Below are positions 1,914 through 39,210 of a stretch of 39,819 nucleotides of DNA, in pieces. Numbering within the stretch: position 1 is the stretch's first letter; every line of letters begins with the position of its first letter. The stretch lies in the sequence record NZ_CP038019.1; one strand, given 5' to 3'. The stretch is from a plasmid. The position numbers were made by a program, and so were the translations under genes. The notes beneath the pieces were generated by a model. That model saw only the letters and a list, made by a program, of their open reading frames with translations, had not been told where the DNA came from and made no database searches.

Positions 1914-2297
1914 ATGATGGGAACTAATAAGCGGAAGTATTCCAAGCGGATTCAAGTGGTCGTCAGTGATGATGAGTTTGCAAAAATAGCCGAAGCGGCC
2001 GAGTCGGTAGGACTCAGCCATTCGGCCTATTTGCGTGAACTGGGTTTGGGCTATGCTCCGGCACCGGTTTACGATTTGGAAGCTGTAGAACAGATGATGA
2101 AGTTGAATGCTGACCAAGGTCGCCTGGGTGGTCTCATCAAGATGTGGTTGAGTAATGATGAACGCTTGCTGATGTTTGAACGTGAGTCATTAAGCAAGGC
2201 TATTTTCGGTGTGTTGAAACAGATCGAAGAGCTTCAGGGGGAGTTATTAGAGGTGGTTAAGATGCGCCGAATTTTAGCCGCTAAAAAAAGGTTCTGA
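1914..2297 (+). CDS. traJ: TraJ/MobC-like relaxosome accessory protein, probably ribbon-helix-helix
   Basis: An RBS caggaaag precedes the ATG at 1914; the ORF-track start at 1818 is probably too far upstream. The segment RIQVVVSDDEFAKIAEAAESVGLSHSAYLRELGLG looks RHH-like. The gene lies immediately upstream of the relaxase. Confidence 0.6.
   Translation: MMGTNKRKYSKRIQVVVSDDEFAKIAEAAESVGLSHSAYLRELGLGYAPAPVYDLEAVEQMMKLNADQGRLGGLIKMWLSNDERLLMFERESLSKAIFGVLKQIEELQGELLEVVKMRRILAAKKRF
2273..2285. promoter_or_regulatory. KorB-type operator palindrome TTTAGCCGCTAAA
   Basis: Perfect 13-bp palindrome matching the RK2 OB consensus. It lies in the 3' end of traJ, 15 bp before the traI start. Confidence 0.7.
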
Positions 2298-2299
2298 GC

Positions 2300-4408
2300 A
2301 TGATTGCCAAAAAAATCCCGATGCGCAATGTTAGGTTGAGCAGTTTTGCTGATTTGGTTACGTATTTGTCATCCAGTCAAGGCATCCATAACCGGGTCGG
2401 CAAAATCGCCCTACATAATTTCCAGGTGGAAAATGTAGATTTTGCCGTACAGGATGTGTTGCGGGTGCAAGACTACAATAAAAGCACAAAGGCGGATAAA
2501 ACCTATCATTTGCTGGTTTCGTTTGCTGACGGGGAGAACCTGTCTGATGAGCAGCTGGCACGGATTGAGCAAAGTATGGTGGAGGCACTGGGTTACGGTG
2601 AGCATCAGCGGATCTCGGTGGTGCATCGTGATACCGATAATCTGCATTTTCATGTTGCCATTAATAAAATTCACCCGCAGAAAAAAACTGTTCACGAACC
2701 CTATCGGGATTTTAAAGTGTTGGGTGAGCAGTGTCGTAAGTTTGAAATTGCATTGGGTTTGCAGCGGGTAGGGCGCGGCGGCGGCAATCGTGCTGGTATC
2801 GATATGGAGGAGATGTCGGGTCTGGAAAGCCTGCTGGGTTGGGTCAGACGTAATGTTGCCGACGGCTTGCGCAAGGCGCAGTCTTGGGAACAGTTGCATC
2901 AGATGGTTTTGGAAAATGGTTTAGAGCTGAAACAACGCGGCAACGGCTTGGTTTTTGGTGCCGGCGGGGTCTGGGTCAAGGCCAGTAGTGTTGATCGGGA
3001 ATTTTCCAAAGCCAAATTGGAACAAAAACTGGGTGCATACCGCCCGCCGCCAGTCGATTTGGCGCGGCCGCCGGTTAAGGCCCGGTATGAAAAAAAACCC
3101 TATTCCCGAACCGATACCAGCCGTTTGTATGCCGCCTACCAGGCCGAGCGCAGCAAAACCGAGCGCCGTCGTCGCGAACAACTGGAAGATTTGATGTATG
3201 AACGCGATCGGGATATACGGTCGATTAAGGCTAAATACGAATTCAGAATCCGCTTGGCCAAATTGGGTGGGCGGCGTAACCGAACGGTACTCCGTATTTT
3301 GTCCAGTCAACGGCGGTTGGAGTTGCAAAGCCGTCGCAGCCAGTACCGTTGGCAGTGTCAATCGGTTTATCAGCAGCACAAACAGCAAACCTGGGCCGAC
3401 TGGTTGAAGCGGCAGGCGGCCGCCGGTAACGCCGAGGCTTTGCAGGCATTGCGCGACCGGGGAAAACAAGCAGTGTATCGCGGTAACCAGTTTCAAGGTC
3501 GGGAAGAGGGCGGCGGTTTGGCAGAAATGCGGGTAGATACTGTGACCAAAAAGGGTACGGTGGTTTACGAGCAGGACGGCTATACTATTCGGGATGCGGG
3601 TCAAACGCTGCATTTGGCGGATATTCCGGCTGATCCGGCGGTAGAAAAGGCGTTGCGTTTGGCAATGGCCAAATACGGTCGGCGTCTGAAGGTAGAGGGG
3701 ACGCAGGACTTCCGTCAGAAGGTTGCCCGTATTGCGGCAGCGGCTGGTTTGGGTGTTGAGTTTACCGATCCGCTTCTCGAGCAAAGTTTCCAACAATACA
3801 AACAGAGGTATGTCGATGTCAGAGCAGGAACACACAGCGGACTTGAAACAATTGATGGCGTTGGGAGCCGAGATGGCATCGGATCAATCGACGGCGCCGC
3901 TGGAATCGAGGGAACCCGAATCATCTCCGGCGAACGCAATGATGTCGGCAGCCGAGATGACCGCGTCGATGGAGCAGTACGTTCCGGCGCGCACACGCAG
4001 TTCGACGACCTTGGAAGGGTTGGCGTTGGAGCGGCCTCACCGTTTGCCGAAGGAGACGACGGTTTGCGAGGAATGTCTGAACGTCGTTTGAAGCAATCGC
4101 GAGCCGCACAATTGGCTGATTTGGTGCAACAGTACATTGATGAGCGGGAAGAAAAACGGCAAAAAGGCTTCGATATAGTGCATCATAGGCGGTATAATGC
4201 AACTGATGCTGGCTGGCTGATTTTCAACGGAATACGGGAAGTTGGCGGCCATCCAATCGGTCTATTCAAACCGGCGCACCGTGACGAGGTGGTGGTGCTG
4301 GGCTTGAGTGATTACGCCCGGCGGCGACTGGGCAAACTCAAATTGGGATCTGAAGTGACCATCAACAAAATTGGTCAGGTACGGATTGGTAAAGGTAGAA
4401 ATAAGTAA
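2300..4408 (+). CDS. traI: MOBP-family conjugative relaxase (TraI)
   Basis: Relaxase motif III of the RP4-TraI type is present as VVHRDTDNLHFHVAINKIHP (HxDxxxxHxHxxxN). The 702-aa protein lies between traJ and the coupling-protein gene. Confidence 0.9.
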   Translation: MIAKKIPMRNVRLSSFADLVTYLSSSQGIHNRVGKIALHNFQVENVDFAVQDVLRVQDYNKSTKADKTYHLLVSFADGENLSDEQLARIEQSMVEALGYGEHQRISVVHRDTDNLHFHVAINKIHPQKKTVHEPYRDFKVLGEQCRKFEIALGLQRVGRGGGNRAGIDMEEMSGLESLLGWVRRNVADGLRKAQSWEQLHQMVLENGLELKQRGNGLVFGAGGVWVKASSVDREFSKAKLEQKLGAYRPPPVDLARPPVKARYEKKPYSRTDTSRLYAAYQAERSKTERRRREQLEDLMYERDRDIRSIKAKYEFRIRLAKLGGRRNRTVLRILSSQRRLELQSRRSQYRWQCQSVYQQHKQQTWADWLKRQAAAGNAEALQALRDRGKQAVYRGNQFQGREEGGGLAEMRVDTVTKKGTVVYEQDGYTIRDAGQTLHLADIPADPAVEKALRLAMAKYGRRLKVEGTQDFRQKVARIAAAAGLGVEFTDPLLEQSFQQYKQRYVDVRAGTHSGLETIDGVGSRDGIGSIDGAAGIEGTRIISGERNDVGSRDDRVDGAVRSGAHTQFDDLGRVGVGAASPFAEGDDGLRGMSERRLKQSRAAQLADLVQQYIDEREEKRQKGFDIVHHRRYNATDAGWLIFNGIREVGGHPIGLFKPAHRDEVVVLGLSDYARRRLGKLKLGSEVTINKIGQVRIGKGRNK

Positions 4409-6320
4409 TATGGGTATTTTCAGCAAGCAACACCGAAATAATGCAGCCGGCCATCGGGAAGAACCGATTTCCAAAAACAGGGAACGCTGGGTAGCAGTGG
4501 GTCTGCTGTTGGGTAGCGTATTACTCGGCCTGTCGGCAGCGACACAGTATTTTGCTGCCGCTGCCGGTTATGACCCTGCTTTGGGTTTCCATATCGGCAA
4601 GCTTTATATGCCGTGGAGTATTTTGATTTGGTACGGTAAGTGGCGGTCGGTGTATCCCAAGCCGTTAATGACGGCATTCAGCATCATGTTGGTGCTGGTC
4701 ACTCTGAGTATGATGGGCATACTGATATGGCGCATTGTCAGAGCAAACACCAATAAGGCACACGAATCCTTGCACGGTTCGGCACGATGGGCTGACCGTA
4801 AGGATATCGAAACCGCTGGCTTGCTACCGAAAAAAGGACAGGATAGCGACGGTGTGTACGTTGGTGGCTGGCTCGACAAACAGGGTAAGCTGCATTATTT
4901 GCGCCATTCCGGTCCGGAGCATGTACTGACTTACGCACCGACCCGTTCCGGTAAAGGTTTGGGTTTGGTTATCCCGACCTTGTTGTCATGGCCGCACAGT
5001 ACGGTCATTACCGATTTGAAAGGCGAATTGTGGGCATTGACCGCCGGTTGGCGCCGCCAATACGCCTATAACAAGGTTATCCGCTTCGAGCCGGCCACTG
5101 CCGCTGGTAGTGCTGCCTGGAATCCGTTGGAGGAGATCCGTATCGGTACCGAGTATGAAATCGGCGACGTGCAGAATTTAGCTACCATGATTGTGGATCC
5201 AGACGGGAAAGGGTTGGTCAGCCACTGGGAAAAAACCGCATTTGCCCTGCTGACGGGCGTTATTTTGTTTGCCTTGTACAAAGAGCGGAAAAACGGGCGG
5301 ATGGCCACTTTACCGGGGATCGACCGGATGTTATCCAATCCGGAACAACCGGTGCAGGATTTATGGGTCGAAATGGCGACCCATTCCCAGGACTATACCG
5401 ATGATGGCCGTGAGTTACTGGTGGTGTCCTCCGCCGGACAGGATATGTTGGATAGGCCGGACGAAGAGGCCGGTTCCGTCCTTTCTACGGCCAAATCCTA
5501 TTTGGCCTTGTACCGCGACACGGTGGTGGCAGCCAATGTCAGCCGTTCGGACTTTCGGATTAAAGACCTGATGAATGACGAAAGCCCGGTCAGCCTATAC
5601 ATCATTACCCAGCCGAACGATAAATTGCGGTTGCGCCCGTTGGTGCGTATTTTGGTAAATATGATTTTCCGGTTGCTGGCGGACAAAATGGAGTTTGAGA
5701 ACGGGCGGCCGAAGGCCAATTACAAGCATCGGCTGCTGTTTATGGCGGATGAATTTCCCAGTTTGGGCAAGTTGGATATTCTGCAAGAGTCGCTGGCGTT
5801 TGTTGCCGGTTACGGGATCAAATGCTACCTGATTACTCAGGATTTGAACCAATTGAAGAGTCGGGAAACCGGCTATGGTCCGGATGAGACCATTACCTCA
5901 AACTGCCACGTCCAAAACGCTTATCCGCCCAACCGGATTGAAACGGCAGAACATCTGTCTAAGCTGACCGGTGTTACAACGGTGGTCAAAGAACAAATCA
6001 CCACCAGCGGCAAACGCGCCAGTGCCATGTTGAGCCAGGTGTCGCGCACGACGCAGGAAGTACAACGGCCCTTGCTGACAGCCGACGAGTGCATGCGCAT
6101 GAAGGGGCCGGTTAAAGATGCCAACGGTATGGTTACCGAGGCCGGTGATATGGTGATTTATGTGGCGGGTTATCCGGCGATTTACGGCCGCCAGATCCTG
6201 TATTTTATGGATCCGGCTTTTTCGGTCCGTGCCAAGGTACCGGCTCCGCGCCATACCGACCGTACCCGTACCTGTATCCGGATCTCGGATGCGCCCAGCG
6301 CATTCGACTTGATGACATGA
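4371..6320 (+). CDS. traG: Type IV coupling protein of the TraG/VirD4 family. An alternative start lies at 4410.
   Basis: N-terminal transmembrane segments, Walker A APTRSGKGLGLVIPTLLS and a DEF..LGK-type Walker B region (MADEFPSLGK). Length is 649 aa. Confidence 0.9.
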   Translation: MVRYGLVKVEISNMGIFSKQHRNNAAGHREEPISKNRERWVAVGLLLGSVLLGLSAATQYFAAAAGYDPALGFHIGKLYMPWSILIWYGKWRSVYPKPLMTAFSIMLVLVTLSMMGILIWRIVRANTNKAHESLHGSARWADRKDIETAGLLPKKGQDSDGVYVGGWLDKQGKLHYLRHSGPEHVLTYAPTRSGKGLGLVIPTLLSWPHSTVITDLKGELWALTAGWRRQYAYNKVIRFEPATAAGSAAWNPLEEIRIGTEYEIGDVQNLATMIVDPDGKGLVSHWEKTAFALLTGVILFALYKERKNGRMATLPGIDRMLSNPEQPVQDLWVEMATHSQDYTDDGRELLVVSSAGQDMLDRPDEEAGSVLSTAKSYLALYRDTVVAANVSRSDFRIKDLMNDESPVSLYIITQPNDKLRLRPLVRILVNMIFRLLADKMEFENGRPKANYKHRLLFMADEFPSLGKLDILQESLAFVAGYGIKCYLITQDLNQLKSRETGYGPDETITSNCHVQNAYPPNRIETAEHLSKLTGVTTVVKEQITTSGKRASAMLSQVSRTTQEVQRPLLTADECMRMKGPVKDANGMVTEAGDMVIYVAGYPAIYGRQILYFMDPAFSVRAKVPAPRHTDRTRTCIRISDAPSAFDLMT

Positions 6321-6868
6321 TAGCGCGGCGCATCCGGCCGCTGCTTGCGGCGGCTGCCAAGTGGGCGGCCGTTGCTTTAACTGTCGTCTTTGTCCTGTTG
6401 GCCACTGCCTATCTGTTGGGTATTCGTTTTAATACTTCCCGCAGCGTTCCCTACGGTTTTTACCGCATAGTGGACAAACCGATTGCCCGGCAGGTTTATG
6501 TACGCTTTTGTCCGCCGGATACCGTACCGTTCAGGTTGGCGCGGACACGCGGATACATCGAAGCCGGTTCCTGCCCCAGTGGTGCCCGTGGATTGATTAA
6601 AACAGTGGTGGGGATGCCGGGCGACCATTACCGGTTTAGTGATGCCGGTCTGGTATTGAACGGTCATTTGCAGACCAATACCCGTCCGTTGCTTGAGGAT
6701 GGTGCCGGTCGGTCTTTGCCCTTGAATCGCAGTAGCGGCATTTTGCAGGCGGGGCAATATATCCTGATGGGGAACAACGTGCCCAACTCTTACGATGCCC
6801 GTTATTACGGCATCATCAACGAGCAGGATGTGACCGCGGTTTTGGAACCGGTATGGTTGCTGGACTAA
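6317..6868 (+). CDS. traF: TraF-like conjugative signal peptidase (S26 family), involved in pilin maturation
   Basis: N-terminal transmembrane anchor. S26-like segments GDHYRFSDAGLVLNG and ILMGNNVPNSYDARYYG. The start overlaps the traG stop (ATGA). Position matches RP4 traF. Confidence 0.75.
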   Translation: MIARRIRPLLAAAAKWAAVALTVVFVLLATAYLLGIRFNTSRSVPYGFYRIVDKPIARQVYVRFCPPDTVPFRLARTRGYIEAGSCPSGARGLIKTVVGMPGDHYRFSDAGLVLNGHLQTNTRPLLEDGAGRSLPLNRSSGILQAGQYILMGNNVPNSYDARYYGIINEQDVTAVLEPVWLLD

Positions 6869-6884
6869 CTGATAAGGCTGAATC

Positions 6885-9086
6885 ATGAGCAGACTGTATA
6901 TTGCCGAAAAACCAGACGTGGCGCGTGCTTTGCGCGAGGCATTGGATCTGCCGGCCGAACGGCTGGACGGCTATTTCAAGTGCAGTAACGGCGACATGAT
7001 TACCTGGTGCTACGGCCATATGCTGCAACTGATGGATCCGGAAGATTACGATCCAAAGTATCAGCAATGGTCACTTGAGCACTTACCGATTGTCCATATC
7101 CCTTGGCGTAAAAAACCGTTACCCGACAGTGCCGTCCAGTTACAGCTAATCGGCAAGTTGTTGCAACAGGCAGCGGAAGTCGTGCATGCCGGCGATCCGG
7201 ATGAAGAAGGGCAGTTGTTGGTGGATGAGGTGTTGGAATATTTTTCTTGGCGCTTGCCGGTCAAACGGGTGCTTATTAACGACAATAATGCCAGCGTGGT
7301 ACGCAAAGCCTTGGCGCAGATGCGTGACAATGCCGAGTACCGCGGTTTGTCCCAGTCGGCGGAAGCCCGTTCGGTCAGTGATCAGTTGTACGGCTACAAC
7401 CTGACCCGGGCCTACACCTTAAAAGCGCGGGAGCAGGGATTTAACGGCGTGTTGTCGGTAGGACGGGTGCAAACGCCGATGCTGGGTTTGGTGGTGCGGC
7501 GTGACCGGGAAAATCAAAACCATGTCAAACAGTATTACTACCAGGTACAGGGAAATTTTGAGGTATCCGGCCAAGTCTTTTCCGCCCGCTATCAACCGCA
7601 ACCGGATACGGATGCGTTAGATGACAAAGGCCGTTTGGCGCGGCAGGATGAGGCAGAAGCCATTGCCCGGGAATGCAGCGGGCAGTCGGCAAAAATTTTA
7701 GCCGCTAAAATTTCCCACAAAACCCAGGCACCGCCGCTGCCATACAATCTGCTGAAGCTGCAAGCTGATTGCGCCCGCAAGTTCGGCTTGAAGCCGGACC
7801 AAGTCAAAGACATTACCCAAGTGTTACGCGAAAAATACAAACTGATTACCTATAACCGCAGCGACTGCCAGTATCTGAATGACGAGCATCATGCGGAGGC
7901 ACCGGTGATTTTGGCGGCCATCGGGCAGAATGCGCCGCTGTTTGCCCGGGTTTTGGCGAAAGCCGACCCGACCATCAAAAGCCGGGCATTCAATAATGAA
8001 AAGGTTTCTGCCCACCACGGCATTATCCCGACCCGGGCAACGGCCGATTTCAGCCGTCTGACCGAAGACGAGCAGCGGATTTATCTGCTGATTGCCCGTT
8101 CTTATATCGCCCAGTTTTACCCGGTGCATGAGTTCGACCAAACCGACTTAACCATCCAAGTCGGCCAGCGGCAGTTCGGTTGCCGCAGCCATAGCACTAC
8201 GGCTGCCGGTTGGCAGGTGCTGTACAAGAACGACCAGGGCAATACAGAAACCCAGCAGGGTGGGGGAGCGGAAGCCATATCGGAAATCGATTTGCGTAAC
8301 CTCCATCAAGGCGATACCGGCTGTTGCCGGACTGCCGAAGCCGTGAGTCTGGAGACCAAGCCCAAACCGCTGTATACCGTCGATACCTTGCTAAACGACC
8401 TGACCCGGGTGGCTAAATACATCCAGAATGACCAACTCCGGAAAATTTTGATTGAAAAAGATAAGGAAAAAGAAGGCGAACATGGCGGCATCGGTACACC
8501 GGCGACCCGGGACGAGATTTTACGCAACCTGTTCGACCGTGGTTATTTGGTCGAAAAAGGGAAACATATTGTCAGTACCGAGATCGGTCGTCAGCTATAC
8601 GATGCCTTGCCGGATCAGGCCAAATATCCGGATATGACCGCTTTGTGGCACCAACAGCAGCAGTACATCGTTAAAGGCGAATTGGATGCCGAACGCTTTG
8701 TCCGCAACTTAATGGAATACATAGGCGGCGAAGTGGCTCGGGTGCAGCAGGACGGCATTCAGCTTGCAATCAAAAAATACCCCTGTCCCAATTGCGGCAA
8801 ACCGCTGCGTCGGATGAAAGGCGGCAAAGGCTTCTTTTGGGGGTGTACCGGTTACAAAGACGGGTGTAAGACTTCTTTTTCCGACAAGGCGGGGCGGCCG
8901 GTTCTGGTGCCGAAAAAGCCGGAACCCAGCAGCAAATATGAATGCACGGCCTGCGGCAGTAAATTGATCAGACGGGCCGGTAAACGTAAAGGAACGCATT
9001 TTTGGGGGTGCAGCAGTTATCCCGACTGCAAACAATATTACCCCGATCTCAATGGGAAACCGGACTACTCACAGACGAAAGGATGA
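6885..9086 (+). CDS. traE: DNA topoisomerase III (type IA) at the RP4 TraE position
   Basis: Toprim N-terminus MSRLYIAEKPDVARAL, type IA core, and C-terminal Cys4 zinc ribbons (CPNCGKPL...GCTGYKDGC; CTACGSKL...GCSSYPDC). Confidence 0.85.
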   Translation: MSRLYIAEKPDVARALREALDLPAERLDGYFKCSNGDMITWCYGHMLQLMDPEDYDPKYQQWSLEHLPIVHIPWRKKPLPDSAVQLQLIGKLLQQAAEVVHAGDPDEEGQLLVDEVLEYFSWRLPVKRVLINDNNASVVRKALAQMRDNAEYRGLSQSAEARSVSDQLYGYNLTRAYTLKAREQGFNGVLSVGRVQTPMLGLVVRRDRENQNHVKQYYYQVQGNFEVSGQVFSARYQPQPDTDALDDKGRLARQDEAEAIARECSGQSAKILAAKISHKTQAPPLPYNLLKLQADCARKFGLKPDQVKDITQVLREKYKLITYNRSDCQYLNDEHHAEAPVILAAIGQNAPLFARVLAKADPTIKSRAFNNEKVSAHHGIIPTRATADFSRLTEDEQRIYLLIARSYIAQFYPVHEFDQTDLTIQVGQRQFGCRSHSTTAAGWQVLYKNDQGNTETQQGGGAEAISEIDLRNLHQGDTGCCRTAEAVSLETKPKPLYTVDTLLNDLTRVAKYIQNDQLRKILIEKDKEKEGEHGGIGTPATRDEILRNLFDRGYLVEKGKHIVSTEIGRQLYDALPDQAKYPDMTALWHQQQQYIVKGELDAERFVRNLMEYIGGEVARVQQDGIQLAIKKYPCPNCGKPLRRMKGGKGFFWGCTGYKDGCKTSFSDKAGRPVLVPKKPEPSSKYECTACGSKLIRRAGKRKGTHFWGCSSYPDCKQYYPDLNGKPDYSQTKG
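7697..7709. promoter_or_regulatory. Intragenic KorB-type operator TTTAGCCGCTAAA
   Basis: Perfect 13-bp palindrome with extended AATTTTAGCCGCTAAAATTT flanks, inside the topoisomerase III gene. Confidence 0.65.
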
Positions 9087-9089
9087 GCA

Positions 9090-9272
9090 ATGGATACAAC
9101 AAACGATGTAATTGCCCAGAAAGTATTGGATTTGGACGTGCCGGGCGTGGAAGTGGCATTCGATCCCGAAGAGGCCGAGGCATTGGGTGCGTTTGTGGAA
9201 ACGGCATTGGAAGAAGCCGATGCGCGCGCCTCCGTCATCGATTTGGCCGAAATATCGGCTGAGGAGGCATAA
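9090..9272 (+). CDS. Small acidic protein, 60 aa, at the RP4 TraD position
   Basis: ORF with Asp/Glu/Ala-rich sequence whose stop overlaps the RBS GAGGAGG of the next gene. Assignment is by position only. Confidence 0.35.
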   Translation: MDTTNDVIAQKVLDLDVPGVEVAFDPEEAEALGAFVETALEEADARASVIDLAEISAEEA

Positions 9273-9273
9273 C

Positions 9274-12237: not shown

Positions 12238-12246
12238 GAGAATAGC

Positions 12247-12795
12247 TTGGATCGTAGGAAATTTTTACAGGGTGCGGTTGGTACGCTGGGTGCCGGTATG
12301 CTTGGTTTGCCGACCATTGCCCTGGCTGACGACAATCGTTTTTGGCTGCGTGACCGCAAATTATCGATATATCGGCCGGCTTCAGGCGAAAGGCAAAATG
12401 TTACATTTTTCAAGGACGGCCGCTATTCACAAGATGGTTATCGGCGGTTGTGCTGGCTGTTTCGTGACGTAGTGGACGGCAATGCCGTCATTGCCATGAA
12501 TATCAGCCTGTTTAACCTGCTGTTCGCCCAGCAGCAGTATCTGCGTGCTATTGGCCGCAGCAATCCGCTGTTGGTCTTGCACAGCGGCTATCGTACCCGC
12601 CGGCACAACAATACTTTGGAAGGGGCAGCAAAAAATTCACGCCACTTGGTCGGGGATGCGGCCGATTTCCATTTCCGACAGGCGACGTTGGAGGAAGTGC
12701 TGGCACTGGCCAGGCGTTTTCGGGTCGGCGGTATCGGGACGTACAGTACTTTCGTACACAACGACATCGGTCGCTACCGTGAGTGGCGCGGTTGA
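12247..12795 (+). CDS. Tat-exported zinc peptidase of the M15/DUF882 (YcbK-like) family with a TTG start; likely a peptidoglycan peptidase
   Basis: RBS aggaga lies 5 nt before the TTG. Twin-arginine signal RRKFLQGAVGTLGAGMLGLPTIALA|DD. M15-type metal ligands are present (H in SGYRTRRHNN, HLVGDAAD, H in FVHND). Confidence 0.6.
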   Translation: MDRRKFLQGAVGTLGAGMLGLPTIALADDNRFWLRDRKLSIYRPASGERQNVTFFKDGRYSQDGYRRLCWLFRDVVDGNAVIAMNISLFNLLFAQQQYLRAIGRSNPLLVLHSGYRTRRHNNTLEGAAKNSRHLVGDAADFHFRQATLEEVLALARRFRVGGIGTYSTFVHNDIGRYREWRG

Positions 12796-12800
12796 TAAAC

Positions 12801-12828
12801 GGGCTACCTGAAAATCTTCAGGTAGCCT
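12801..12828. terminator. Perfect 11-bp-stem hairpin made of an inverted DNA-uptake-sequence pair (Eikenella dialect), 6 bp after the peptidase stop
   Basis: gGGCTACCTGAA aatc TTCAGGTAGCCt. The minus-strand arm is an exact AGGCTACCTGAA. Inverted DUS pairs act as terminators in Neisseriaceae. Confidence 0.55.
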
Positions 12829-14066: not shown

Positions 14067-14078
14067 ACTGGAGGTATC

Positions 14079-28845: not shown

Positions 28846-28857
28846 GGTTCTGCTCTT

Positions 28858-31395: not shown

Positions 31396-31709
31396 TTGTA
31401 TCTAGCCCCTTGGGTTGCGGAGTTATTGCGGAAGGGTGTGGCTCTCGGTGGGTAATAGCTTTTGTATTTGGTAATGGCACGTAAGCCAACGAAACGCAGT
31501 AATGGGTCGTATTTGGCCAAGCGGCGCAGTAGGTACAGTGCCAGTACCCAGAAAACCAGACCGATGATGGCGGCATATAAATTTTGCGAGGCTACTACCA
31601 ACACAAAGGTCAGCAGCATCGACATTTGCACCATTTCCCGGTCGCCACCTAGGAAAAGGTTGGGTCGGTTTGCCACGCGACGGATTGGAATGGTTCGGAT
31701 CGGTCTCAT
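31392..31709 (-). CDS. trbD: TrbD/VirB3-like membrane protein
   Basis: 105 aa with hydrophobic helices. Overlaps the trbE start (ATGA). Confidence 0.7.
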   Translation of the reverse strand: MRPIRTIPIRRVANRPNLFLGGDREMVQMSMLLTFVLVVASQNLYAAIIGLVFWVLALYLLRRLAKYDPLLRFVGLRAITKYKSYYPPRATPFRNNSATQGARYK

Positions 31710-31730
31710 GCCGATGCCTCCTGTGTCGAA

Positions 31731-32126
31731 TTAAGAATGGGGAGAGTAGGTATATCCGAGGGGAGTCGCAGTCGGTGAAGCTTGGGCAGAAACGGTTATT
31801 TCGGCACCTGAGTCGAACAGATTAGTCATCAAGTTTTGGGCACCGACCAGCAGGGACATCACCAAGACGATAAAAATCAATGACCGGAAGAACGCATTCA
31901 ATTCACCGCCGAAAATCAATACTGCACCGGCCACCACAATGCCGATAATGGAAACGGAAAAAGCGACAGGGCCAGTCACCGATTGACGCAGTTTGGTCAG
32001 CCAACCTTCATACGGTAGGCCGCCCCCTTGTGCGGCCGAAGCGAAAGCCGATTGGGTAAACAACAGAAGCAGAACGGTAAAAACGAGCAACATGAATAAG
32101 TATTGGCGAGACAGAGTTAATTTCAT
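31731..32126 (-). CDS. trbC: TrbC/VirB2 pilin precursor
   Basis: Long signal peptide followed by two hydrophobic helices, typical of VirB2-type pilins. Confidence 0.7.
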
Positions 32127-32225
32127 AGTAAAACCTTTATATTTTTATAAGTGGGGAAAATAAAGTGGAAACGCGCAGTGAAAGTTAATCATTCGGTCGG
32201 TGGTATGTTAAATGCCTCCTTGGGG

Positions 32226-33224
32226 TTATAAATACTCAAAATCAAACGACTTATCGTGATGATTATAACCGCTAATTTTGATGATTTCTCGGATTTTCCT
32301 CCCGGTGTTTCGGTCTTTTGAAATAAAAACGATGATGTTCACGACTTGGGCAATCAGTTGCCGGATTTCGGTAGGGTGGAATGGGTTGCGAGTAATCAAC
32401 CCTTCCAATCTCTCCAGGCCCAGTACCGCCGAGTTGGCGTGTACTGTGGCTACCCCGCCCGGGTGACCGGTATTCCAAGTATCCAGCAGGTCCAATGCTT
32501 CAGCACCACGGACTTCACCCACGACAATGCGATCTGGACGAAAACGCAGGGCGGTCCGCACCAGTTTGGTCAAATCTGCCGCCATCGTGGTATAGACATG
32601 CACCTTGTTGGGCGAGTCACAACGGATTTCACCGGTATCTTCCGAAATATAAATACGTTCGTTTGGGTGTTGATCGGTCATTTCCCGGATGATGCCGTTG
32701 ACTAAGGTGGTTTTACCGGAACCGGTACCGCCGATAACCAAAATATTGCTTTTATCGGTTATCGCCTGTTGGATTATCGACTTTTGCTGTTCGGTCATGA
32801 TGTCGTTGGCCACATACTCGTCCAATGTAAATACCCGATTGGGTCGTTTACGGATGGTGAAGGACGGGGTAGTGGTGACCGGCGGCATGATGCCGGTAAA
32901 ACGGCTGCCGTCAATCGGGAACTGACTTTCTAAGATGGGATCGGCTTCATTGACAGTTTTGTTGTAATAGCCGGCAATGGTTTTGATGACGCTTTCCGCG
33001 CGACTGGAATTGAAGCGTTTGCTCATTTCCGGGTCATAGACCATGTCCTGACCCTGTTCTTCCCAGAAGATCGATGATGAGCCATCTTCATTGGGATTAC
33101 ACATCACTTCCAACAGGTTGGGATTCAGGAATTTCTGTAAAAATTCCTGACCCAGATCCCGTTTCAATTTTTCAAGCGCCCTACCCTTTCGGCTGGCGAC
33201 GCTGTCTTCTTGATGATCATTCAT
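32226..33224 (-). CDS. trbB: TrbB/VirB11 secretion ATPase
   Basis: Walker A ILVIGGTGSGKTTL. Segments typical of VirB11/GspE (IRCDSPN...VGEVRG, Walker B/His-box region). Confidence 0.9.
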   Translation of the reverse strand: MNDHQEDSVASRKGRALEKLKRDLGQEFLQKFLNPNLLEVMCNPNEDGSSSIFWEEQGQDMVYDPEMSKRFNSSRAESVIKTIAGYYNKTVNEADPILESQFPIDGSRFTGIMPPVTTTPSFTIRKRPNRVFTLDEYVANDIMTEQQKSIIQQAITDKSNILVIGGTGSGKTTLVNGIIREMTDQHPNERIYISEDTGEIRCDSPNKVHVYTTMAADLTKLVRTALRFRPDRIVVGEVRGAEALDLLDTWNTGHPGGVATVHANSAVLGLERLEGLITRNPFHPTEIRQLIAQVVNIIVFISKDRNTGRKIREIIKISGYNHHDKSFDFEYL

Positions 33225-33303
33225 AAAGCATTTTCCCTTGGTGTATTATACAATACGATATAATGAAGTGTAAAAGAATTTGAACCAAGCCTTAACGAAT
33301 AGG

Positions 33304-33367: not shown

Positions 33368-33739
33368 CTATTTTTTGCGTTTTAGCTCTTTAATTGCCTC
33401 AGCCCCCCATTTTTTGACGGTAAATGCCCGGTATTTGGGTAGGATAACGGTTACACATTCATAGTTGTCCGGCAATATAGGCATATATTGCCTATCTTTG
33501 GACAACATGGCCAGGTAATCGGCATCCAAGTCATGGTGAGTCAGTAAATAAGGCAACGGTGTTTCCAATGCGGCAGCAATGGAGGCCATGGTTTCTAAAG
33601 TAGGGTTGCCTTGCCCCCGGGTAATTGAGGACAACAGGCTGGCTGATAGCTTAGCTTTGGCAGCTAATTCTTGGTGGGTCATCTTTTTTTCCACAGCCGT
33701 ATTGAGTACGTTGGTGAAAAAGATGTGGTGGTAACTCAT
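33368..33739 (-). CDS. trbA: XRE-type HTH repressor at the RK2 trbA position
   Basis: HTH MTHQELAAKAKLSASLLSSITRG. Encoded divergently from ssb-trfA with a KorB operator in the shared region, as in RK2. Confidence 0.55.
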   Translation of the reverse strand: MSYHHIFFTNVLNTAVEKKMTHQELAAKAKLSASLLSSITRGQGNPTLETMASIAAALETPLPYLLTHHDLDADYLAMLSKDRQYMPILPDNYECVTVILPKYRAFTVKKWGAEAIKELKRKK

Positions 33740-33746: not shown

Positions 33747-33759
33747 TTTTAGCGGCTAA
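33747..33759. promoter_or_regulatory. KorB-type operator TTTAGCGGCTAAA in the divergent trbA/ssb-trfA promoter region
   Basis: Perfect palindrome with AAATTTTAGCGGCTAAAATTT flanks. Confidence 0.7.
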
Positions 33760-33797
33760 AATTTAATTTCAGTAGTATAACAAACAACGGAGGGTGT

Positions 33798-34184
33798 ATG
33801 AACAAGTTCCTTATTTCTGGCCGAACTACCAAAGACTTGATATTGGAAACGACTGCCCACGGTAAACCGTTTACCGTCCTGACCATAGCTGAAAATTATG
33901 GCTATATAAAAGATGGTCAAAAAGTTGAATCCGTTAATTATTTCAGAATTTTAGCTTACGGCGAACAGGCAAAAAATGCGGTTAAATTCTGCGGCAAGGG
34001 TTCCTACCTGCTGATCGAGGCTCGAATTGAAAATGATAACTACGAAAAAGATGGGCATAAGATCTATAAAGATGCCATGATTGCCAGACGTATCGAATAC
34101 GCGGCCTTGAAAGCCCCGGCCGGCAGCAGCGCAGCAGAAAATCCGCCAGCTTTTACCTATGATCCCGAACAGGAAGTGAAATAA
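33798..34184 (+). CDS. ssb: Plasmid single-stranded DNA-binding protein
   Basis: OB-fold SSB-like sequence (LISGRTTKD...NYFRILAYGEQAKNAVKFCGKGSYLLIEARIEN). First gene of an ssb-rep operon as in RK2. Confidence 0.75.
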   Translation: MNKFLISGRTTKDLILETTAHGKPFTVLTIAENYGYIKDGQKVESVNYFRILAYGEQAKNAVKFCGKGSYLLIEARIENDNYEKDGHKIYKDAMIARRIEYAALKAPAGSSAAENPPAFTYDPEQEVK

Positions 34185-34264
34185 TACAGGGTTTGTTTAC
34201 CCCAGGGAAAAGCTGTGCCAGGGCAGGATATCTCCCCCTGCCCTATCCAACAAAAGGAAAACTG

Positions 34265-35137
34265 ATGAAAACAGAGAATAAATCCACAACCGACTTGGTA
34301 CAGGCGAGGCAAGAAGAGCATCGCCGGCGCAGCTATTTGCAGGAAAAAGGTATTAACCCAGACGGGGAAATGGTGATTCAAGACCTGTTTGGCCGTACCT
34401 TATTCGGCTCGTCTCATCGCCAGCTGCCCAATGACTTTGCCAGGTCTTGTTTATTCACGGCCCGGCACCCCAAAATCCCGAGGAAAACATTTAGTCGTGC
34501 AAAGTTATTTCATGTTTCAGAGAAAATCGAAATCCTTTATACCGGTATCGAATTACGGTCCATTGACGATGAACTAATTTGGATGCAGCTGGTGGAGTAT
34601 TGCCGCTCCGCCCCATTGGGCGATTATATCGAATTCGATATTAGACAGCTGATTAAAGACATCGGCTGGGGAACTGCCGGAACTTATTATAAAAAAGTCA
34701 GGGAATCCATCAGCCGGATGAAGGCGACAGAAATTTATATCAAAAACAGCAATGCCTTCGGTATCAGCGGAGGACTGTCCCTTATCGGCGATTATGTTGG
34801 ATACGCCAACCAAGACGGACAGCCTACTCGTTATCAAATCAGTATTGATAAAAACTTGATTCTGCTATTTGCGGGAGAGACCTTTACCAATATTCCTTGG
34901 AGTCAATACAAACAGCTGTCGCCCATGGCCAGACGGTTGACCGATTATGTCTTTAGCCATCGGCAACCCAACCCCATCCAAGTCACCACCTTTTTGGCCA
35001 TGTGCGGTAGCGACCAAATCGACTCTCCCTCCAAAACCCAAAATCATAGTGCCAAAAAAGTCTGTGCCGAATTGGTTGATAAACAATTGGTCAAGGCGGC
35101 GTTCGTTCACGATGGCCGGATTATTGTAGAACGTTAA
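34265..35137 (+). CDS. trfA: TrfA-like replication initiator. The ORF-track start at 34193 is probably too far upstream.
   Basis: RBS aaaggaaaa then ATG at 34265, giving 290 aa. Operon context is ssb upstream and a 17-bp iteron array immediately downstream. Assignment is by synteny. Confidence 0.55.
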   Translation: MKTENKSTTDLVQARQEEHRRRSYLQEKGINPDGEMVIQDLFGRTLFGSSHRQLPNDFARSCLFTARHPKIPRKTFSRAKLFHVSEKIEILYTGIELRSIDDELIWMQLVEYCRSAPLGDYIEFDIRQLIKDIGWGTAGTYYKKVRESISRMKATEIYIKNSNAFGISGGLSLIGDYVGYANQDGQPTRYQISIDKNLILLFAGETFTNIPWSQYKQLSPMARRLTDYVFSHRQPNPIQVTTFLAMCGSDQIDSPSKTQNHSAKKVCAELVDKQLVKAAFVHDGRIIVER

Positions 35138-35240
35138 CCTCTCTCGGTCTAAAGGCCGGGTTTCTATGACTATCAGCCATATCCTGTCCCCAAGTTCGTT
35201 TCTTAGTGAGGCGTTGGCATTGTGGAAAACTACGCATGGT

Positions 35241-35607
35241 GCGTAATCTTAGCTGCCAAAAAATAGGATGCTGCGTAATCTTAGCTGCCAAAAAACAGGA
35301 AAAACCGGGAAACTGCGTAATCTTAGCTGCCTAGCATCCTAAAACACGGTATTTGCGTAATCTTAGCTGCCCAAATAGGCTGTTTCAGCCGTACGTCATA
35401 TAGGCGAACTAAATGAAAACAAAAAAAGCCGTTAATTTTAGCTAAAGTTATGTGGATAACCTGTGGAAAACTAATAATTCCGCCTAAAATTTAGGCAAAA
35501 AGTGCGTAATCTTAGCTGCCATCTGCGTAATTCTAGCTGCCCTCGCGCGTAATCTTAGCTGCCAATTTGCGTAATCTTAGCTGCCAAACCGCGTAATTTT
35601 ACCTGCC
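35241..35607. repeat. oriV: oriV iteron array: nine copies of the 17-bp GCGTAATCTTAGCTGCC, the last five at exact 22-bp spacing
   Basis: Copies start at 35241, 35273, 35315, 35355, 35504, 35525 (variant), 35547, 35569 and 35591 (variant). An AT-rich tract follows at 35608-35700. Confidence 0.85.
35451..35459 (-). promoter_or_regulatory. Consensus DnaA box TTATCCACA on the minus strand between the iteron groups
   Basis: The plus strand reads tgtggataa. Near-consensus copies tgtggaaaa occur at 35221 and 35462. Confidence 0.65.
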
Positions 35608-35748
35608 TACCCATTTGTAATGCCATGATATGACTAATAAAAAACACCCATTTTTTTGCCCTAACCTATTTCTAACCTATATATAACCTATGTTGCTTCG
35701 CAACTTCACCTAGTCTGTCGGCTTCGCCGATTTGGACAACTTCATTAT

Positions 35749-36171
35749 TTGCCTGTCAGCCTACCGGCTGATTTAGATTGTTTTACCCCAAGGGGAAATA
35801 TGGCGCTCATCGAACTTTCTGCATTACTCACACCGTATCAAGCTTATTCCGTCCGGATTTGGGATAAAGAAAACCGACAAAAGGCAGGTTTGCCATCTAG
35901 AGCAGAAACGGCAGCTGACCTAGCTGAGAAAATCCGGCCAGAGTGTTTTTTACCCTTCCCAGAGTGGTCGGTGCCTACCAAGGAAGAAGTCACCGCTTTA
36001 TTGGATATATCCGGTCTGACCCAAAAGCAAGCAGCAACCTTAGTGGGGTTGAAAGATAACAATGGGCGTACTTTTAGGCGGTTCACCATGGGGGAGACCC
36101 CGATAGCTTATGCTTACTGGTTTATCTTATGCCAATATGCAGGCTTATCAAACAATTACAAAAATATTTAG
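35749..36171 (+). CDS. Hypothetical HTH protein upstream of parA/incC. A possible internal start lies at 35797.
   Basis: HTH-like segment LTQKQAATLVGLKDNNGRTFRRF. Confidence 0.35.
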   Translation: MPVSLPADLDCFTPRGNMALIELSALLTPYQAYSVRIWDKENRQKAGLPSRAETAADLAEKIRPECFLPFPEWSVPTKEEVTALLDISGLTQKQAATLVGLKDNNGRTFRRFTMGETPIAYAYWFILCQYAGLSNNYKNI

Positions 36172-36173
36172 AT

Positions 36174-36186
36174 TTTAGCGGCTAAA
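36174..36186. promoter_or_regulatory. KorB-type operator TTTAGCGGCTAAA in the parA/incC promoter region
   Basis: Perfect palindrome about 60 bp upstream of the parA start. Confidence 0.7.
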
Positions 36187-36234
36187 ATTATTGTGCTATA
36201 GGTTATTTTAACCTATAATATAGCCATATTTGAT

Positions 36235-37008
36235 ATGGAGGTAGCGATGAAAACCATCGTGGTAGCCCAGCAAAAGGGTGGGGTCGGCAAAACAGCACTT
36301 GCGCTACATTTGGCTTGGTTTCTAACCGAGCGTAAGAGCAGCAAAGTGTTATTTATTGATTTAGATACCCAAGGCAATGCGACTTATTCCTTGTCTGGGG
36401 TAAAACAAATTGTCGGTATGGGTAGCGGTAACTTATTTTCGGCTGATTTGACGGTTACCTATGATTTCTCTGATTCTCCCCTGGTGTTACTTCCGGCCGG
36501 CAGTATGCTGGCCAATATCCAAAACCTGTCTTTACAGGAAGCCGCATCTGCCTTTTTGAGTAATTTTAATGCCATTAAGGAAATGGGTTATTTTGATTAC
36601 TGCGTGATTGATACCCCGCCGAGCTTAGGCAATGCTTTGGCCGCCGCATTGATGGCTGCTGATTTTGTGGTGTGCCCGATTGAACCGGAAACTTATAGTA
36701 TCCAAGGTATTGGTCAAATGGCATTAACCATTAATAACATCAAAAAAATCAACAAGAACCTGACCTTTTTGGGATTGTTGCCAAGTAAAGTAGACATGCG
36801 TAATCCACGGCATATCAAACATTTAGCACAGATTAAGAGCCAATACAGTGATTATTTGATTCCGGTATCTATTGGTTTACGCAGCAGCATTGCTGATGCG
36901 GTTGCCTCCAGTGTCCCGGTGTGGCACATCAAAAGGACTGCGGCCCGAAAAGCGGCCAAAGAAGTGAATGCAGTTGCCGAATATATTTTTACAAGAATGC
37001 GAGGTTAA
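36235..37008 (+). CDS. incC: ParA/IncC partition ATPase. The likely true start is at 36247.
   Basis: Deviant Walker A QQKGGVGKTALALHLA. ParA-type length. Encoded upstream of the parB/korB-like gene. Confidence 0.85.
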   Translation: MEVAMKTIVVAQQKGGVGKTALALHLAWFLTERKSSKVLFIDLDTQGNATYSLSGVKQIVGMGSGNLFSADLTVTYDFSDSPLVLLPAGSMLANIQNLSLQEAASAFLSNFNAIKEMGYFDYCVIDTPPSLGNALAAALMAADFVVCPIEPETYSIQGIGQMALTINNIKKINKNLTFLGLLPSKVDMRNPRHIKHLAQIKSQYSDYLIPVSIGLRSSIADAVASSVPVWHIKRTAARKAAKEVNAVAEYIFTRMRG

Positions 37009-37919
37009 TGATGATGAATTTAGACAGCCTGGAAGATTTAAGTTCTTTGTTGAACGCTCCTGCTCCGGTTACCGGGGTTCCCTTATTGCTTAAATTGAGC
37101 CAAATACAGGAAGACCCCAATCAACCCCGGAAAATTTTTGATGAAGAGAAACTGCGAGAGTTGGCGGATAGCATCAAAGTACGTGGTGTAAAAACCCCCA
37201 TTTCCGTGCATGAGGACGAATCAAATCCCGGTTTCTATATCATCAACCACGGATCACGGCGTTACCGGGCATCCATGATGGCTGGAAAAGAGACGATCCC
37301 GGCATATGTCGATGGAGATTACACATTTTTGGATCAACTGGTTGAGAATATCCAACGGGATAATTTAACGCCAAGGGAAACAGCGGATGGCATAGCATTG
37401 ATGCTTAACTCAGGAATGAAAAAAGGCGAAGTAGCCAAAAGACTGGGTAAATCTGCCGCTTTCGTTAGCCAACATGTTGCTTTGTTATCGTTGCCAGAAC
37501 CGGTGGCCGCTGTCTTTAACGCGGGAAAGGTTAGTGATGTGACGGTAGTCAACGAGTTAAATACTTTATATGGGCGGTATCCGGAGGCAGTAGAGGAGTT
37601 GCTACAGAATGAAGATGATATTACTCGTTCCACCATCCGGCATTTCAAGGAGTTTTTAAAAGGGGACCCATCTGCCGAAAAAGAAAGTGAGGCAGTGTCT
37701 GCCCCGGAAATTAACGCCAAGAAAGATAAGCCAGCCGACCCGAAGAAACTGAAAAAAGCGATTGTGCAAGTGATGTATCAAGGACAGCTGGCGCGGTTGA
37801 TTTTGAATAAGCGGGCGCATAATACGGATGAAGTCTGGTTGCAATTTGAGGAATCCGGTGAGCAGGAATCGGTACCGTGTGCTGAGATTTCCAGTATTGT
37901 GGCCGTTATTGAAGGATAA
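37008..37919 (+). CDS. korB: ParB/KorB-like partition protein and global regulator
   Basis: ParB HTH region ETADGIALMLNSGMKKGEVAKRLGKSAAFVSQHVALLSL. The five KorB-type operators found in this window imply that its operators are present. Confidence 0.8.
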   Translation: MMMNLDSLEDLSSLLNAPAPVTGVPLLLKLSQIQEDPNQPRKIFDEEKLRELADSIKVRGVKTPISVHEDESNPGFYIINHGSRRYRASMMAGKETIPAYVDGDYTFLDQLVENIQRDNLTPRETADGIALMLNSGMKKGEVAKRLGKSAAFVSQHVALLSLPEPVAAVFNAGKVSDVTVVNELNTLYGRYPEAVEELLQNEDDITRSTIRHFKEFLKGDPSAEKESEAVSAPEINAKKDKPADPKKLKKAIVQVMYQGQLARLILNKRAHNTDEVWLQFEESGEQESVPCAEISSIVAVIEG

Positions 37920-37932: not shown

Positions 37933-38157
37933 ATGCAACTGAATGATGAACAGAGACGCGAACTTGAAGAAAATATGAAGCAAACAGACGCCATTTTAGC
38001 GTTGGAGGGATTTGAAAAGACCGAAGAGAGTCGGGCCAGAAATAAAGCTGTTTTAGCTGGTCGCTTTACTCATGAGGAACTGGCTGAATTGATGCTTGCC
38101 TATGCTCAAAAACATAAAACTATTGAAGGATTTAATCAAAGTATGGGAATAGATTAA
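37933..38157 (+). CDS. Small Fic antitoxin-like protein (VbhA-like)
   Basis: 74 aa. ILALEG resembles the xxxE(G/N) inhibitory motif. It is coupled 10 nt upstream of a canonical Fic gene. Confidence 0.5.
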   Translation: MQLNDEQRRELEENMKQTDAILALEGFEKTEESRARNKAVLAGRFTHEELAELMLAYAQKHKTIEGFNQSMGID

Positions 38158-38166: not shown

Positions 38167-39195
38167 GTGGCAAGCGTATATAGGGACAATAATGGGGTGC
38201 TGAAGAATAAGCTAGGGATTACTGATGCTGATGAATTGCGTAAATTGGAGTACGCCCTTACTGAAGAAAAGATAAACGGGATTCTATCAAAGGGAAGTTT
38301 GGGAAACATACAAGGTTACGGTTTGGAACGGCAGCAGGCTATTCACCAACACTTATTTGAAGGTATCTACGAGTGGGCAGGCAAGGTACGGACTGTACCT
38401 TCCAGCAAAGGGATGGGTGGCGGTTTAGTGTCCATATTCGCCGATCCGGATGAAATCCACCAGGTTTGGGGTTTATTGGAGCAGAAAACCGCCCGTTTTG
38501 CCCGAGCCGAAAATCTGAGTTTTGAGCAAAAATTAGAAGAGTTGACCGATATATTTATCCAAGCCAACCATGCCCACCCCTTTCCGGAAGGGAATGGCCG
38601 CAGCTTACAAGTATTCATGCGCCAGCTGGCAGCCGAGCAGGGTATCCGTTTGGATTACAGTAAAAACGATAAAGACGAGTGGAACTATGCCAGCGCCATA
38701 AGCGGGGTATATGGGGTATTTTGGGAGGACAATGGAGAGAAATACGTGAATCCCCTGCCGTCAAACAAGGAACCGATTAAAGCTATTTTCCGTAATATGG
38801 CGACCCCTATGCAGACTTTGAATCAGACACCCCAGGAAAATATAAACGTGGAGAAGCAGCGGGTGGTAGTCATGAACAAGACTTACCTGCTGGAAACCGA
38901 GCAGAACGGCAAATGGCAGACGGTAAGTGTCACTCCTGCCCCCAAAGGGATGAAGCCAGGGGTTTATTTGCTGCATACGGCCAAAGAGGCGGCAGAAGGC
39001 CAGGAATATGATGGCCAGATTGTGCACAAGGATAAAAATCATGTGTTCCAAAAAACCGCATCTGGAATAGTCAAACATCCGGCTAAAGCGTTTGTCCAGC
39101 TGCCGGAATTGGGTGCCACGGTTTCGATAAAACGCCAAGGGGATAAGGTTGTGGTGGCGGAAAGCCGGGGGCGGAAATCAGGCCGCCGTATCTAA
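38167..39195 (+). CDS. Fic adenylyltransferase-type toxin with a canonical motif, plus the shared C-terminal domain
   Basis: HAHPFPEGNGRSLQVF matches HPFx(D/E)GNGR. The C-terminal 228-342 segment (GMKPGVYLLHTAKEAAEGQEYDGQIVHKD...ESRGRKSGRRI) is homologous to the C-termini of the ORFs at 15616 and 17188. Confidence 0.85.
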   Translation: MASVYRDNNGVLKNKLGITDADELRKLEYALTEEKINGILSKGSLGNIQGYGLERQQAIHQHLFEGIYEWAGKVRTVPSSKGMGGGLVSIFADPDEIHQVWGLLEQKTARFARAENLSFEQKLEELTDIFIQANHAHPFPEGNGRSLQVFMRQLAAEQGIRLDYSKNDKDEWNYASAISGVYGVFWEDNGEKYVNPLPSNKEPIKAIFRNMATPMQTLNQTPQENINVEKQRVVVMNKTYLLETEQNGKWQTVSVTPAPKGMKPGVYLLHTAKEAAEGQEYDGQIVHKDKNHVFQKTASGIVKHPAKAFVQLPELGATVSIKRQGDKVVVAESRGRKSGRRI

Positions 39196-39197
39196 AT

Positions 39198-39210
39198 TTT
39201 AGCCGCTAAA
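39198..39210. promoter_or_regulatory. KorB-type operator TTTAGCCGCTAAA, 3 bp after the Fic stop and 17 bp before the next ORF
   Basis: Perfect palindrome with AAATTTTAGCCGCTAAAATCT flanks. Confidence 0.7.

Follow-up and report, generated by a model that had tools for sequence, protein, structure and literature searches.

The plasmid NZ_CP038019.1, analysed here over its full length of 39,819 nucleotides (referred to as the window), encodes a KorB protein of the ParB family and carries the palindrome TTTAGC(C/G)GCTAAA (TTTAGCSGCTAAA) at exactly five places in 39.8 kb, with exact matches starting at 2273, 7697, 33748, 36174 and 39198. This 13-bp palindrome is identical to the experimentally defined KorB operator (OB) of plasmid RK2 (PMC2680271, PMC5577506). 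Joining the two ends of the window (39772-39819 plus 1-431) turns traM into a complete open reading frame (ORF) of 160 amino acids; the window is therefore the whole circular plasmid, and the five sites are its whole operator complement. The replicon is IncP-1-like and shares its gene order with pEP5289, a plasmid of gonococci.

A first-pass annotation made from the letters alone had already reported five perfect palindromes. All were found again, one of them a single base further on (33748, not 33747). The description of the copies as identical is correct as far as the 12 arm bases go, the same in five of five sites, but not for the central base, which is C at 2273, 7697 and 39198 and G at 33748 and 36174. 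The palindrome reaches at least 15 bp (tTTTAGCSGCTAAAa) at every site and 21 bp at 7697 and 33748. In 100 dinucleotide-preserving shuffles, which served as the chance control, the average was 0.00 matches per shuffled window against the five real ones. A pattern search with mismatches, of the kind that the annotation had proposed, revealed no copy with one or two mismatches in the whole window, and such a bimodal set of sites (five exact, none at one or two mismatches) is the pattern expected under selection.

Matches with three mismatches, 14 against 11.5 expected and one of them within the TrfA iterons, are at chance level and were rejected as further operators. The TTTAGC half-sites at 37995 and 38052, both within a small VbhA-like ORF, were likewise judged to be chance occurrences. 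An inverted repeat in the oriT region (CAAATTTAGTttgACTAAATTTG, 1721-1743) contains AAATTTAG, a stretch that is also part of the extended KorB operator arm.

Position and conservation of the five sites

Four of the five sites (2273, 7697, 36174 and 39198) are intragenic or at gene junctions, twice as many as first supposed. The site at 2273-2285 (centre C) falls within the last 25 nt of traJ (1818-2297), 14 nt before the ATG of traI (2300-4408), and has counterparts at 34420 in pEP5289, at L003:8059 in R751, at 15235 in L008 and at 4811 in L009. Judged by this placement, it is the positional counterpart of OB4 of RK2 and R751. The traJ/traI site of IncP-1 plasmids is non-coding and lies within a 34-bp gap, and in RP4, OB4 in this gap represses traGp (PMC7314908). 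Of the two tra sites that had early on been likened to class III distal operators, the traJ/traI copy is an exact counterpart of RK2 OB4, and the copy in traE has no IncP-1 counterpart.

This latter site, at 7697-7709 (centre C), lies inside traE (6885-9086), the gene for a topoisomerase III, where it covers codons 271-275 and the peptide KILAAK and lies 812 nt past the ATG, exactly as far as in pEP5289. The TraE proteins of the two plasmids are 69% identical and use the same codon for only 52% of the shared residues, and KILAAK forms a conserved island in a variable loop in which R751 TraE differs. Retention of the arm bases despite this codon divergence, in a peptide island within a variable loop, points to selection at the DNA level. 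IncP-1 plasmids have a site in traF instead, and from these comparisons the traE site is specific to the Neisseriaceae plasmid lineage.

The site at 33748-33760 (centre G) occupies, within its 21-bp palindrome, the 58-bp gap between the divergent genes trbA (33368-33739, minus strand; Pfam HTH_3) and ssb (33798-34184, plus strand; Pfam SSB). With counterparts at 26609 in pEP5289, 16902 in R751, 690 in L008 and 36803 in L009, it is by position the counterpart of the IncP-1 trfA/trbA promoter site (OB10). The site at 36174-36186 (centre G) starts 2 nt past the stop codon of korC (35800-36171, plus strand; tblastn with R751 KorC, E value 3e-20) and ends 4 nt before the predicted -35 element of the incC-korB promoter. 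The same layout, with TTGACA...TATAAT, is seen in pEP5289 (28901) and in the metagenome contig L010 (523), and at korAp of R751 the OB likewise lies 4 bp ahead of TTGACG. The IncP-1 positions are thus matched at both places, trbA/ssb-trfA and upstream of incC, where promoter sites had been proposed.

The fifth site, at 39198-39210 (centre C), starts 2 nt past the stop codon of fic-kfrB (38167-39195, a Fic-KfrB fusion in the control operon) and ends 15 nt before the ATG of kfrC (39226-39771). It thus sits within the operon, in a gap too short for a promoter, and therefore cannot be a promoter operator. Its earlier assignment as the operator of a kfrA-like gene has to be dropped, the next gene being kfrC and tblastn finding no KfrA homologue on the plasmid. 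The junction site recurs in pEP5289 (31478), R751 (834), L008 (12036), L009 (1465) and L010 (3029). With IncC (ParA) and KorB (a ParB-type CTPase) both encoded on the plasmid, and the site at the kfrB/kfrC position, it is the most likely candidate for an IncC/KorB centromere by analogy with RK2, in which OB3, by map order the kfrB/kfrC site, is the partition site (PMC3597684; Williams et al. 1998, cited in PMC5577506).

Conservation of these sites was assessed by position and protein, because DNA matches in PLSDB were too sparse: in megablast searches, window positions 1-20000 had no match, and the second half matched only gonococcal plasmids, with 73% identity in trbE. There are six exact OB sites in pEP5289, five of them at the places of the window's own. 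Not one of the 60 arm bases has changed between the paired sites; four of the five pairs have a different central base, and the 60-nt flanks show 22-77% ungapped identity. The canonical IncP-1 plasmids used for comparison, R751 and one plasmid each from B. ambifaria and X. translucens, carry 10-12 OB sites apiece and share four positions with the window, namely the trfA/trbA promoter, the central control promoter, kfrB/kfrC and traJ-traI. In L010, a Neisseriaceae-type relative from a metagenome, the sites at the incC promoter and at kfrB/kfrC are retained.

The surrounding backbone, identified by Pfam scans and tblastn, is of the IncP-1 kind, with TrfA and an iteron-bearing oriV, Trb and Tra modules in IncP order, and synteny with pEP5289 and R751. 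The ssb-trfA replication operon (33798-35137) ends with trfA (34193-35137, plus strand; Pfam TrfA) and is followed by oriV (35240-35618) with nine TrfA iterons (TGCGTAATCTTAGCTGCC), of which four are spaced and five recur at 21-22 bp. Between the two iteron groups lie a DnaA-box-like TGTGGATAA and a KorA-operator-like core, TTTAGCTAAA (35437), although the plasmid has no korA. Downstream of korC come incC (36235-37008, plus strand; Pfam AAA_31, CbiA, ParA), encoding a ParA-type partition ATPase of the short IncC2-like form; korB (36921-37919, plus strand, as the longest ORF from GTG 36921; the start is probably in an ATG cluster at 37008, and pEP5289 KorB begins just past incC); and the small VbhA-like ORF (74 amino acids, 37933-38157), which has a weak match to the VbhA antitoxin and precedes the Fic-KfrB gene. 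The genes traM, traL and traK are on the minus strand; traG, traF, traE and traC follow traI; a cargo region with resolvase and toxin-antitoxin genes spans about 12.8-19 kb; and the trb operon occupies 19060-33224 on the minus strand. Pfam also finds a relaxase, a TraG-type coupling protein, a TraF peptidase, a topoisomerase, TrbL and TrbM. Three toxin-like enzymes, two Fic and one zeta toxin, carry a C-terminal KfrB domain (38167-39195, 15616-16821 and 17188-18261).

The host is an Eikenella-group bacterium (Neisseriaceae). An identical KorB is encoded on LXSK01000012.1 (assembly GCA_001648345.1), whose length of 41,113 bp would fit a terminal overlap, and a 39.5-kb contig of Eikenella halliae carries a 98% identical KorB and five sites, with four of the five inter-site intervals the same as those of the window. 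The Eikenella-type DNA uptake sequence GCTACCTGAA (PMC3630211) is present in three copies (a pair at 12803-12826 and one at 22163-22172), compared with 0.05 expected. The two copies at 12803-12826 form a terminator-like inverted pair just past a DUF882 gene.

KorB and its candidate partners

Pfam resolves the window KorB into ParB_N, KorB, KorB_C and HTH_ParB domains, and the protein matches the RK2 KorB structures 8QA8 (E value 9.5e-67), 1R71 (E value 1.7e-41) and 1IGQ; a cognate KorB is thus encoded on the same replicon as the sites. It is 64% identical to the KorB of gonococcal plasmids and about 45% identical to IncP-1 KorB. With residue numbering carried over through 1R71 (RK2 residues 117-294), RK2 R117, N146, T211, R240 and F249 are kept as R114, N143, T208, R236 and F245 (ORF numbering). 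T211 and R240 are reportedly the operator-specificity side chains of RK2 KorB (residue numbers attributed to Khare et al. 2004). The operator-reading residues being kept, an unchanged operator sequence is predicted. Operator specificity of KorB comes from residues outside the helix-turn-helix (PMC3597684), R117 and N146 serve binding of cytidine triphosphate (CTP) and clamp closure in the RK2 protein (PMC11790492), and F249 in helix alpha10 is the partner-docking aromatic (bioRxiv 10.64898/2026.05.27.728120). Plasmids of Neisseria, Azoarcus, Burkholderia and Xanthomonas that encode KorB homologues of 39-64% identity carry the operator palindrome too.

Of the four global regulators of IncP-1 plasmids, KorB, KorC and TrbA are present and KorA is absent. 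No KorA was found on the plasmid by tblastn, R751 KorA matching only the C-terminus of TrbA; a sequence search of the window did not reveal the KorA operator GTTTAGCTAAAC; and there is no room for korA between the incC promoter and incC. TrbA, 46% identical to its R751 ortholog, combines an N-terminal helix-turn-helix with a C-terminal KorB-docking domain, in which LP..E.V...LP...AF.VKKW is invariant relative to R751 and F106 corresponds to F104 of RK2 TrbA and Y84 of KorA. In RK2, the sliding-and-locking pair of KorB and TrbA is characterised by this aromatic of the TrbA C-terminal helix and by KorB F249 (bioRxiv 10.64898/2026.05.27.728120), and both residues are present here as KorB F245 and TrbA F106.

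The candidate targets of these proteins are predicted promoters. That of incC-korB (36191-36219, plus strand) was read from the sequence as TTGTGC, 17 nt and TATAAT. That of trbA (33774-33802, minus strand; TTCATA, 17 nt, TG-TATACT) has 9 of 12 consensus matches and an extended -10 element, which by themselves are weak evidence, and places the OB at 33748 at about +7 to +20 of the predicted transcript. Any -10 element for ssb would place its -35 element within the same OB. The predicted trbB promoter (33245-33274, minus strand; TTTACA, 18 nt, TATAAT; 11 of 12 matches) lies 474 bp from that site, and the predicted traG promoter (4170-4198, plus strand, in traI; TCGATA, 17 nt, TATAAT; 10 of 12 matches) lies 1.9 kb downstream of the OB at 2273. 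Sites are therefore found both next to promoters and distal to them, the promoters being predictions. A motif scan placed a TrbA-operator-like TACGATATAATGAA (33254-33267) in the spacer of the trbB promoter and TTCGATATAGTGCA (4169-4182) over the -35 element of the traG promoter, and T[TA]CGATATAnTG[AC]A occurs in the window solely at these two promoters; its putative operator role is assigned by similarity. IncP-1 beta plasmids and pEP5289 have an equivalent motif at both trbBp and traGp, and in pEP5289 (36601), L008 (17277) and L009 (6886) it lies about 250 bp ahead of traG. A perfect RK2-type CGATATATCG is located at 12365-12374 within a DUF882/yegA-like gene.

KorC is a further candidate partner of KorB. 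At 123 amino acids versus 85 in IncP-1, the protein has an N-terminal extension of roughly 40 residues (MALIELSALLTPYQAYSVRIWDKEN), which is kept in pEP5289 KorC and metagenomic relatives and holds a KorA/TrbA-like docking motif, LLTPYQAYSVRIW (LLTPYQA[YF]xV+xW), with the aromatic Y16. Alignment of the extension with the KorA/TrbA C-termini by hhalign gave a probability of 93.9% and an E value of 1.6e-7, with Y16 falling on the aromatic (KorA Y84, TrbA F104) that is critical for docking (PMC2680271). When the six-frame translations of seven plasmids or loci were scanned with a relaxed version of the docking motif, the matches were KorA, TrbA and KlcB in annotated IncP-1 plasmids and TrbA and the long KorC, and nothing else, in Neisseriaceae-type plasmids; the Azoarcus locus L006 gave a single match, to an ORF without annotation that immediately precedes korB and is probably KorA. 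Among KorC relatives, an exhaustive search found that 3 of 161 representatives cover the extension (a word-indexed search had found 3 relatives). The AlphaFold2 model of KorC has a mean predicted local distance difference test score (pLDDT) of 68.5, and the motif is helical (residues 12-25) at a pLDDT of about 45-55, which neither supports nor refutes docking.

The DNA of the central control promoter bears on the same proposal. A 17-bp KorC-type palindrome, TAGGTTATTTTAACCTA, lies at 36199-36215 in the spacer and -10 element of the incC promoter, the slot that the KorA operator (OA) occupies in IncP-1 plasmids, and its TAGG...CCTA ends are presumably those of the RK2 KorC operator. It is 27 bp from the OB at 36174, centre to centre (28-29 bp in pEP5289), and its position is kept in pEP5289 (28927) and L010. 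The half-site TAACCTAT occurs six times in the window compared with 0.78 expected; three copies form direct repeats phased at 11 bp upstream of korC (35662-35691), a triple repeat also seen in L010, and another (13632-13639) sits in the spacer of a promoter-like site in the cargo region (13618-13646). A palindrome within trbA (GGCAATATAggcaTATATTGCC, 33471-33492) contains TAGGCATATATTGCCTA, a second TAGG-N9-CCTA element. It is a tentative proposal from these sequences, one on which the odds are slightly unfavourable, that KorC took over from KorA the capture and locking of the KorB clamp at the central control promoter in the lineage without KorA, which comprises the Eikenella plasmid, pEP5289 of gonococci and a few relatives from metagenomes. 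If true, KorC would be a third kind of KorB partner, with the docking module moved onto a different DNA-binding domain.

Proposed network and alternative explanations

Taken together, the palindromes are most readily understood as the OB operators of the plasmid's own KorB, forming a reduced IncP-1-type control and partition network, a reading to which we assign a probability of about 85%. RK2 KorB is an OB-loaded CTP sliding clamp that is captured and locked near promoters by KorA or TrbA (PMC11790492; bioRxiv 10.64898/2026.05.27.728120), and its sites are located either 4-10 bp ahead of a promoter or 45 to >1,000 bp ahead of it (PMC11790492). By extension, all five sites would serve as loading points for KorB dimers, which would bind CTP, form a closed clamp and slide. 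From 36174, KorB would directly repress its own incC-korB-(vbhA-like)-fic-kfrB-kfrC operon in a proximal, autoregulatory manner, while at 33748, on the face-to-face ssb-trfA and trbA promoters, it would set the levels of the replication initiator and of TrbA. Clamps from 33748 could also slide the 474 bp to the trbB promoter, to be locked by TrbA at the operator-like motif, and those from 2273 could slide 1.9 kb to the traG promoter with its TrbA-type motif, as RK2 OB4 does for traGp. The site at 39198 would most likely serve as the IncC/KorB centromere, and that at 7697 may be a distal loading point peculiar to the lineage, retained because selection acts on the DNA.

The proposal of KorB-type operators and an IncP-style regulon on a Neisseriaceae plasmid is in this way borne out in silico by the cognate KorB, the conserved RK2 residues and the positions shared with pEP5289 and IncP-1 plasmids. 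The logic of RK2 can be transferred only in part, as it rests on KorA, which is absent together with its operator, although TrbA and possibly KorC are available as partners. An operator link to the cargo genes, also claimed by the first-pass annotation, is not borne out: the cargo region (about 12.8-19 kb) holds no site, and the sixth site of pEP5289 is missing here. The promoter-like site at 13618-13646 has just a KorC-type half-site at the place where pEP5289 has its KorB site.

Three other explanations were weighed. The sites might be parS-like centromeres for IncC/KorB only, without a transcriptional role. KorB is a ParB homologue encoded beside a ParA, and one site holds, by map order, the position of the RK2 partition site OB3; the dispersed sites of RK2 may also aid segregation (PMC3597684). 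Against this, the title of Williams et al. 1998 (cited in PMC5577506) indicates that a single site is enough for RK2 partition; two of the window's sites occupy promoters exactly as in IncP-1 plasmids, one 4 bp ahead of a -35 element and the other within the 58 bp that separate trbA and ssb; and the KorB F249 equivalent and the TrbA docking motif, which serve repression and not partition, are kept, all of which makes a role confined to partition decidedly improbable. An assignment of the palindromes to another protein, or to chance or a selfish repeat unrelated to KorB, finds nothing specific to recommend it beyond the stretch of the extended arm in the oriT-region inverted repeat. It is contradicted by the identity with the defined RK2 OB (PMC2680271, PMC5577506), the presence on the plasmid of a cognate KorB with kept specificity residues, the chance expectation of zero and the company that the motif keeps with KorB homologues of 39-64% identity in plasmids of Neisseria, Azoarcus, Burkholderia and Xanthomonas, and can be given practically no weight.

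A different possibility is that the three intergenic copies are functional operators while those in traJ and traE reflect coding constraint or are inert relics. Both intragenic copies encode ILAAK in frame, no target promoter has been identified for the traE site, and some sites of RK2 itself, OB6 among them, are of low affinity and have no known role (PMC7314908). However, the traJ/traI site persists as non-coding DNA in the 34-bp gap of IncP-1 plasmids, so that DNA and not peptide is conserved; at traE, all arm bases are shared with pEP5289 at 52% codon identity, although the loop is variable and the R751 peptide different; and OB4 of RP4, the counterpart of the traJ copy, represses traGp (PMC7314908). 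We therefore regard this division of the sites as unlikely.

Several observations weigh against the reading of the five sites as KorB operators in a reduced control and partition network. Binding, sliding and repression by KorB are all inferred here from RK2 biochemistry, and with KorA absent, the strength of repression in RK2 cannot be carried over. The -35 element of the incC promoter was found by eye and has just three of six consensus matches, a promoter scan found no canonical sigma-70 promoter for ssb-trfA on the plus strand beside 33748, and no target is identified for the site at 7697. No OB lies between trbA and trbB, where IncP-1 plasmids have OB9, and control of trbB from 474 bp away is therefore an extrapolation. 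The traK-traJ (oriT) gap holds no TrbA-type motif at two or fewer mismatches. Finally, the kfrB/kfrC site is taken to be OB3 from the order of sites along IncP-1 maps.

Relation to known systems

Pachulec & van der Does (2010, PMC2848598) described six KorB sites in pEP5289, some extended to 19 bp, and assigned the gonococcal plasmids to a divergent subfamily of IncP-1. The five sites of the window are thus an expected feature, and to this subfamily the window adds a new and more distant member. For the sites themselves the finding is confirmatory; it extends the family of plasmids by which tetM spreads among gonococci with a diverged member from a genus of oral commensals, and indicates that the four core sites have kept their placement, and KorB its operator, while the proteins diverged by more than 50% (Neisseriaceae, Burkholderia, Xanthomonas). 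As a small natural network that lacks KorA and consists of five sites, TrbA and a modified KorC, it would allow clamp sliding and locking to be dissected with fewer components, and it could address whether KorB has partners beyond KorA and TrbA.

The closest known systems are pEP5289, pEP5233 and pEP5050 (the 'Dutch backbone'), in which the gene order is the same: trbA | ssb-trfA-oriV-korC-incC-korB-kfrB-kfrC | traMLK | traJIGFE... Common to pEP5289 and the window are the lack of KorA and KfrA, the long KorC and the KorC-type palindrome in the incC promoter. The window differs from pEP5289 in lacking the sixth, cargo-region OB, kleE between korC and incC, and tetM, and in having a Fic-fused kfrB, other cargo and Eikenella-type uptake sequences, and DNA identity is at most about 73%, solely in trbE.

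With RK2, RP4 and R751, the window shares the same 13-bp operator, the KorB domains and key residues, the TrbA docking motif and the TrbA-type motifs at the trbB and traG promoters. In contrast to these plasmids, it has five sites instead of 11-12, no KorA or OA, no KfrA, and no kle, kla or klc operons or their sites; sites between trbA and trbB, in trbJ and in traF are missing, and that in traE is extra.

At a greater distance stand the ParB-parS CTP sliding clamps, which resemble the present system in the ParB_N CTPase domain with GxRRYR and ENxQR, the palindromic loading sites and the ParA partner; Spo0J/ParB proteins are the best non-KorB structural relatives of the window KorB. Unlike them, this protein has a KorB-type DNA-binding domain and a C-terminal beta-barrel, its 13-bp site is unrelated to the 16-bp parS, and KorB sites lie on promoters, where they are used in repression with partner repressors.

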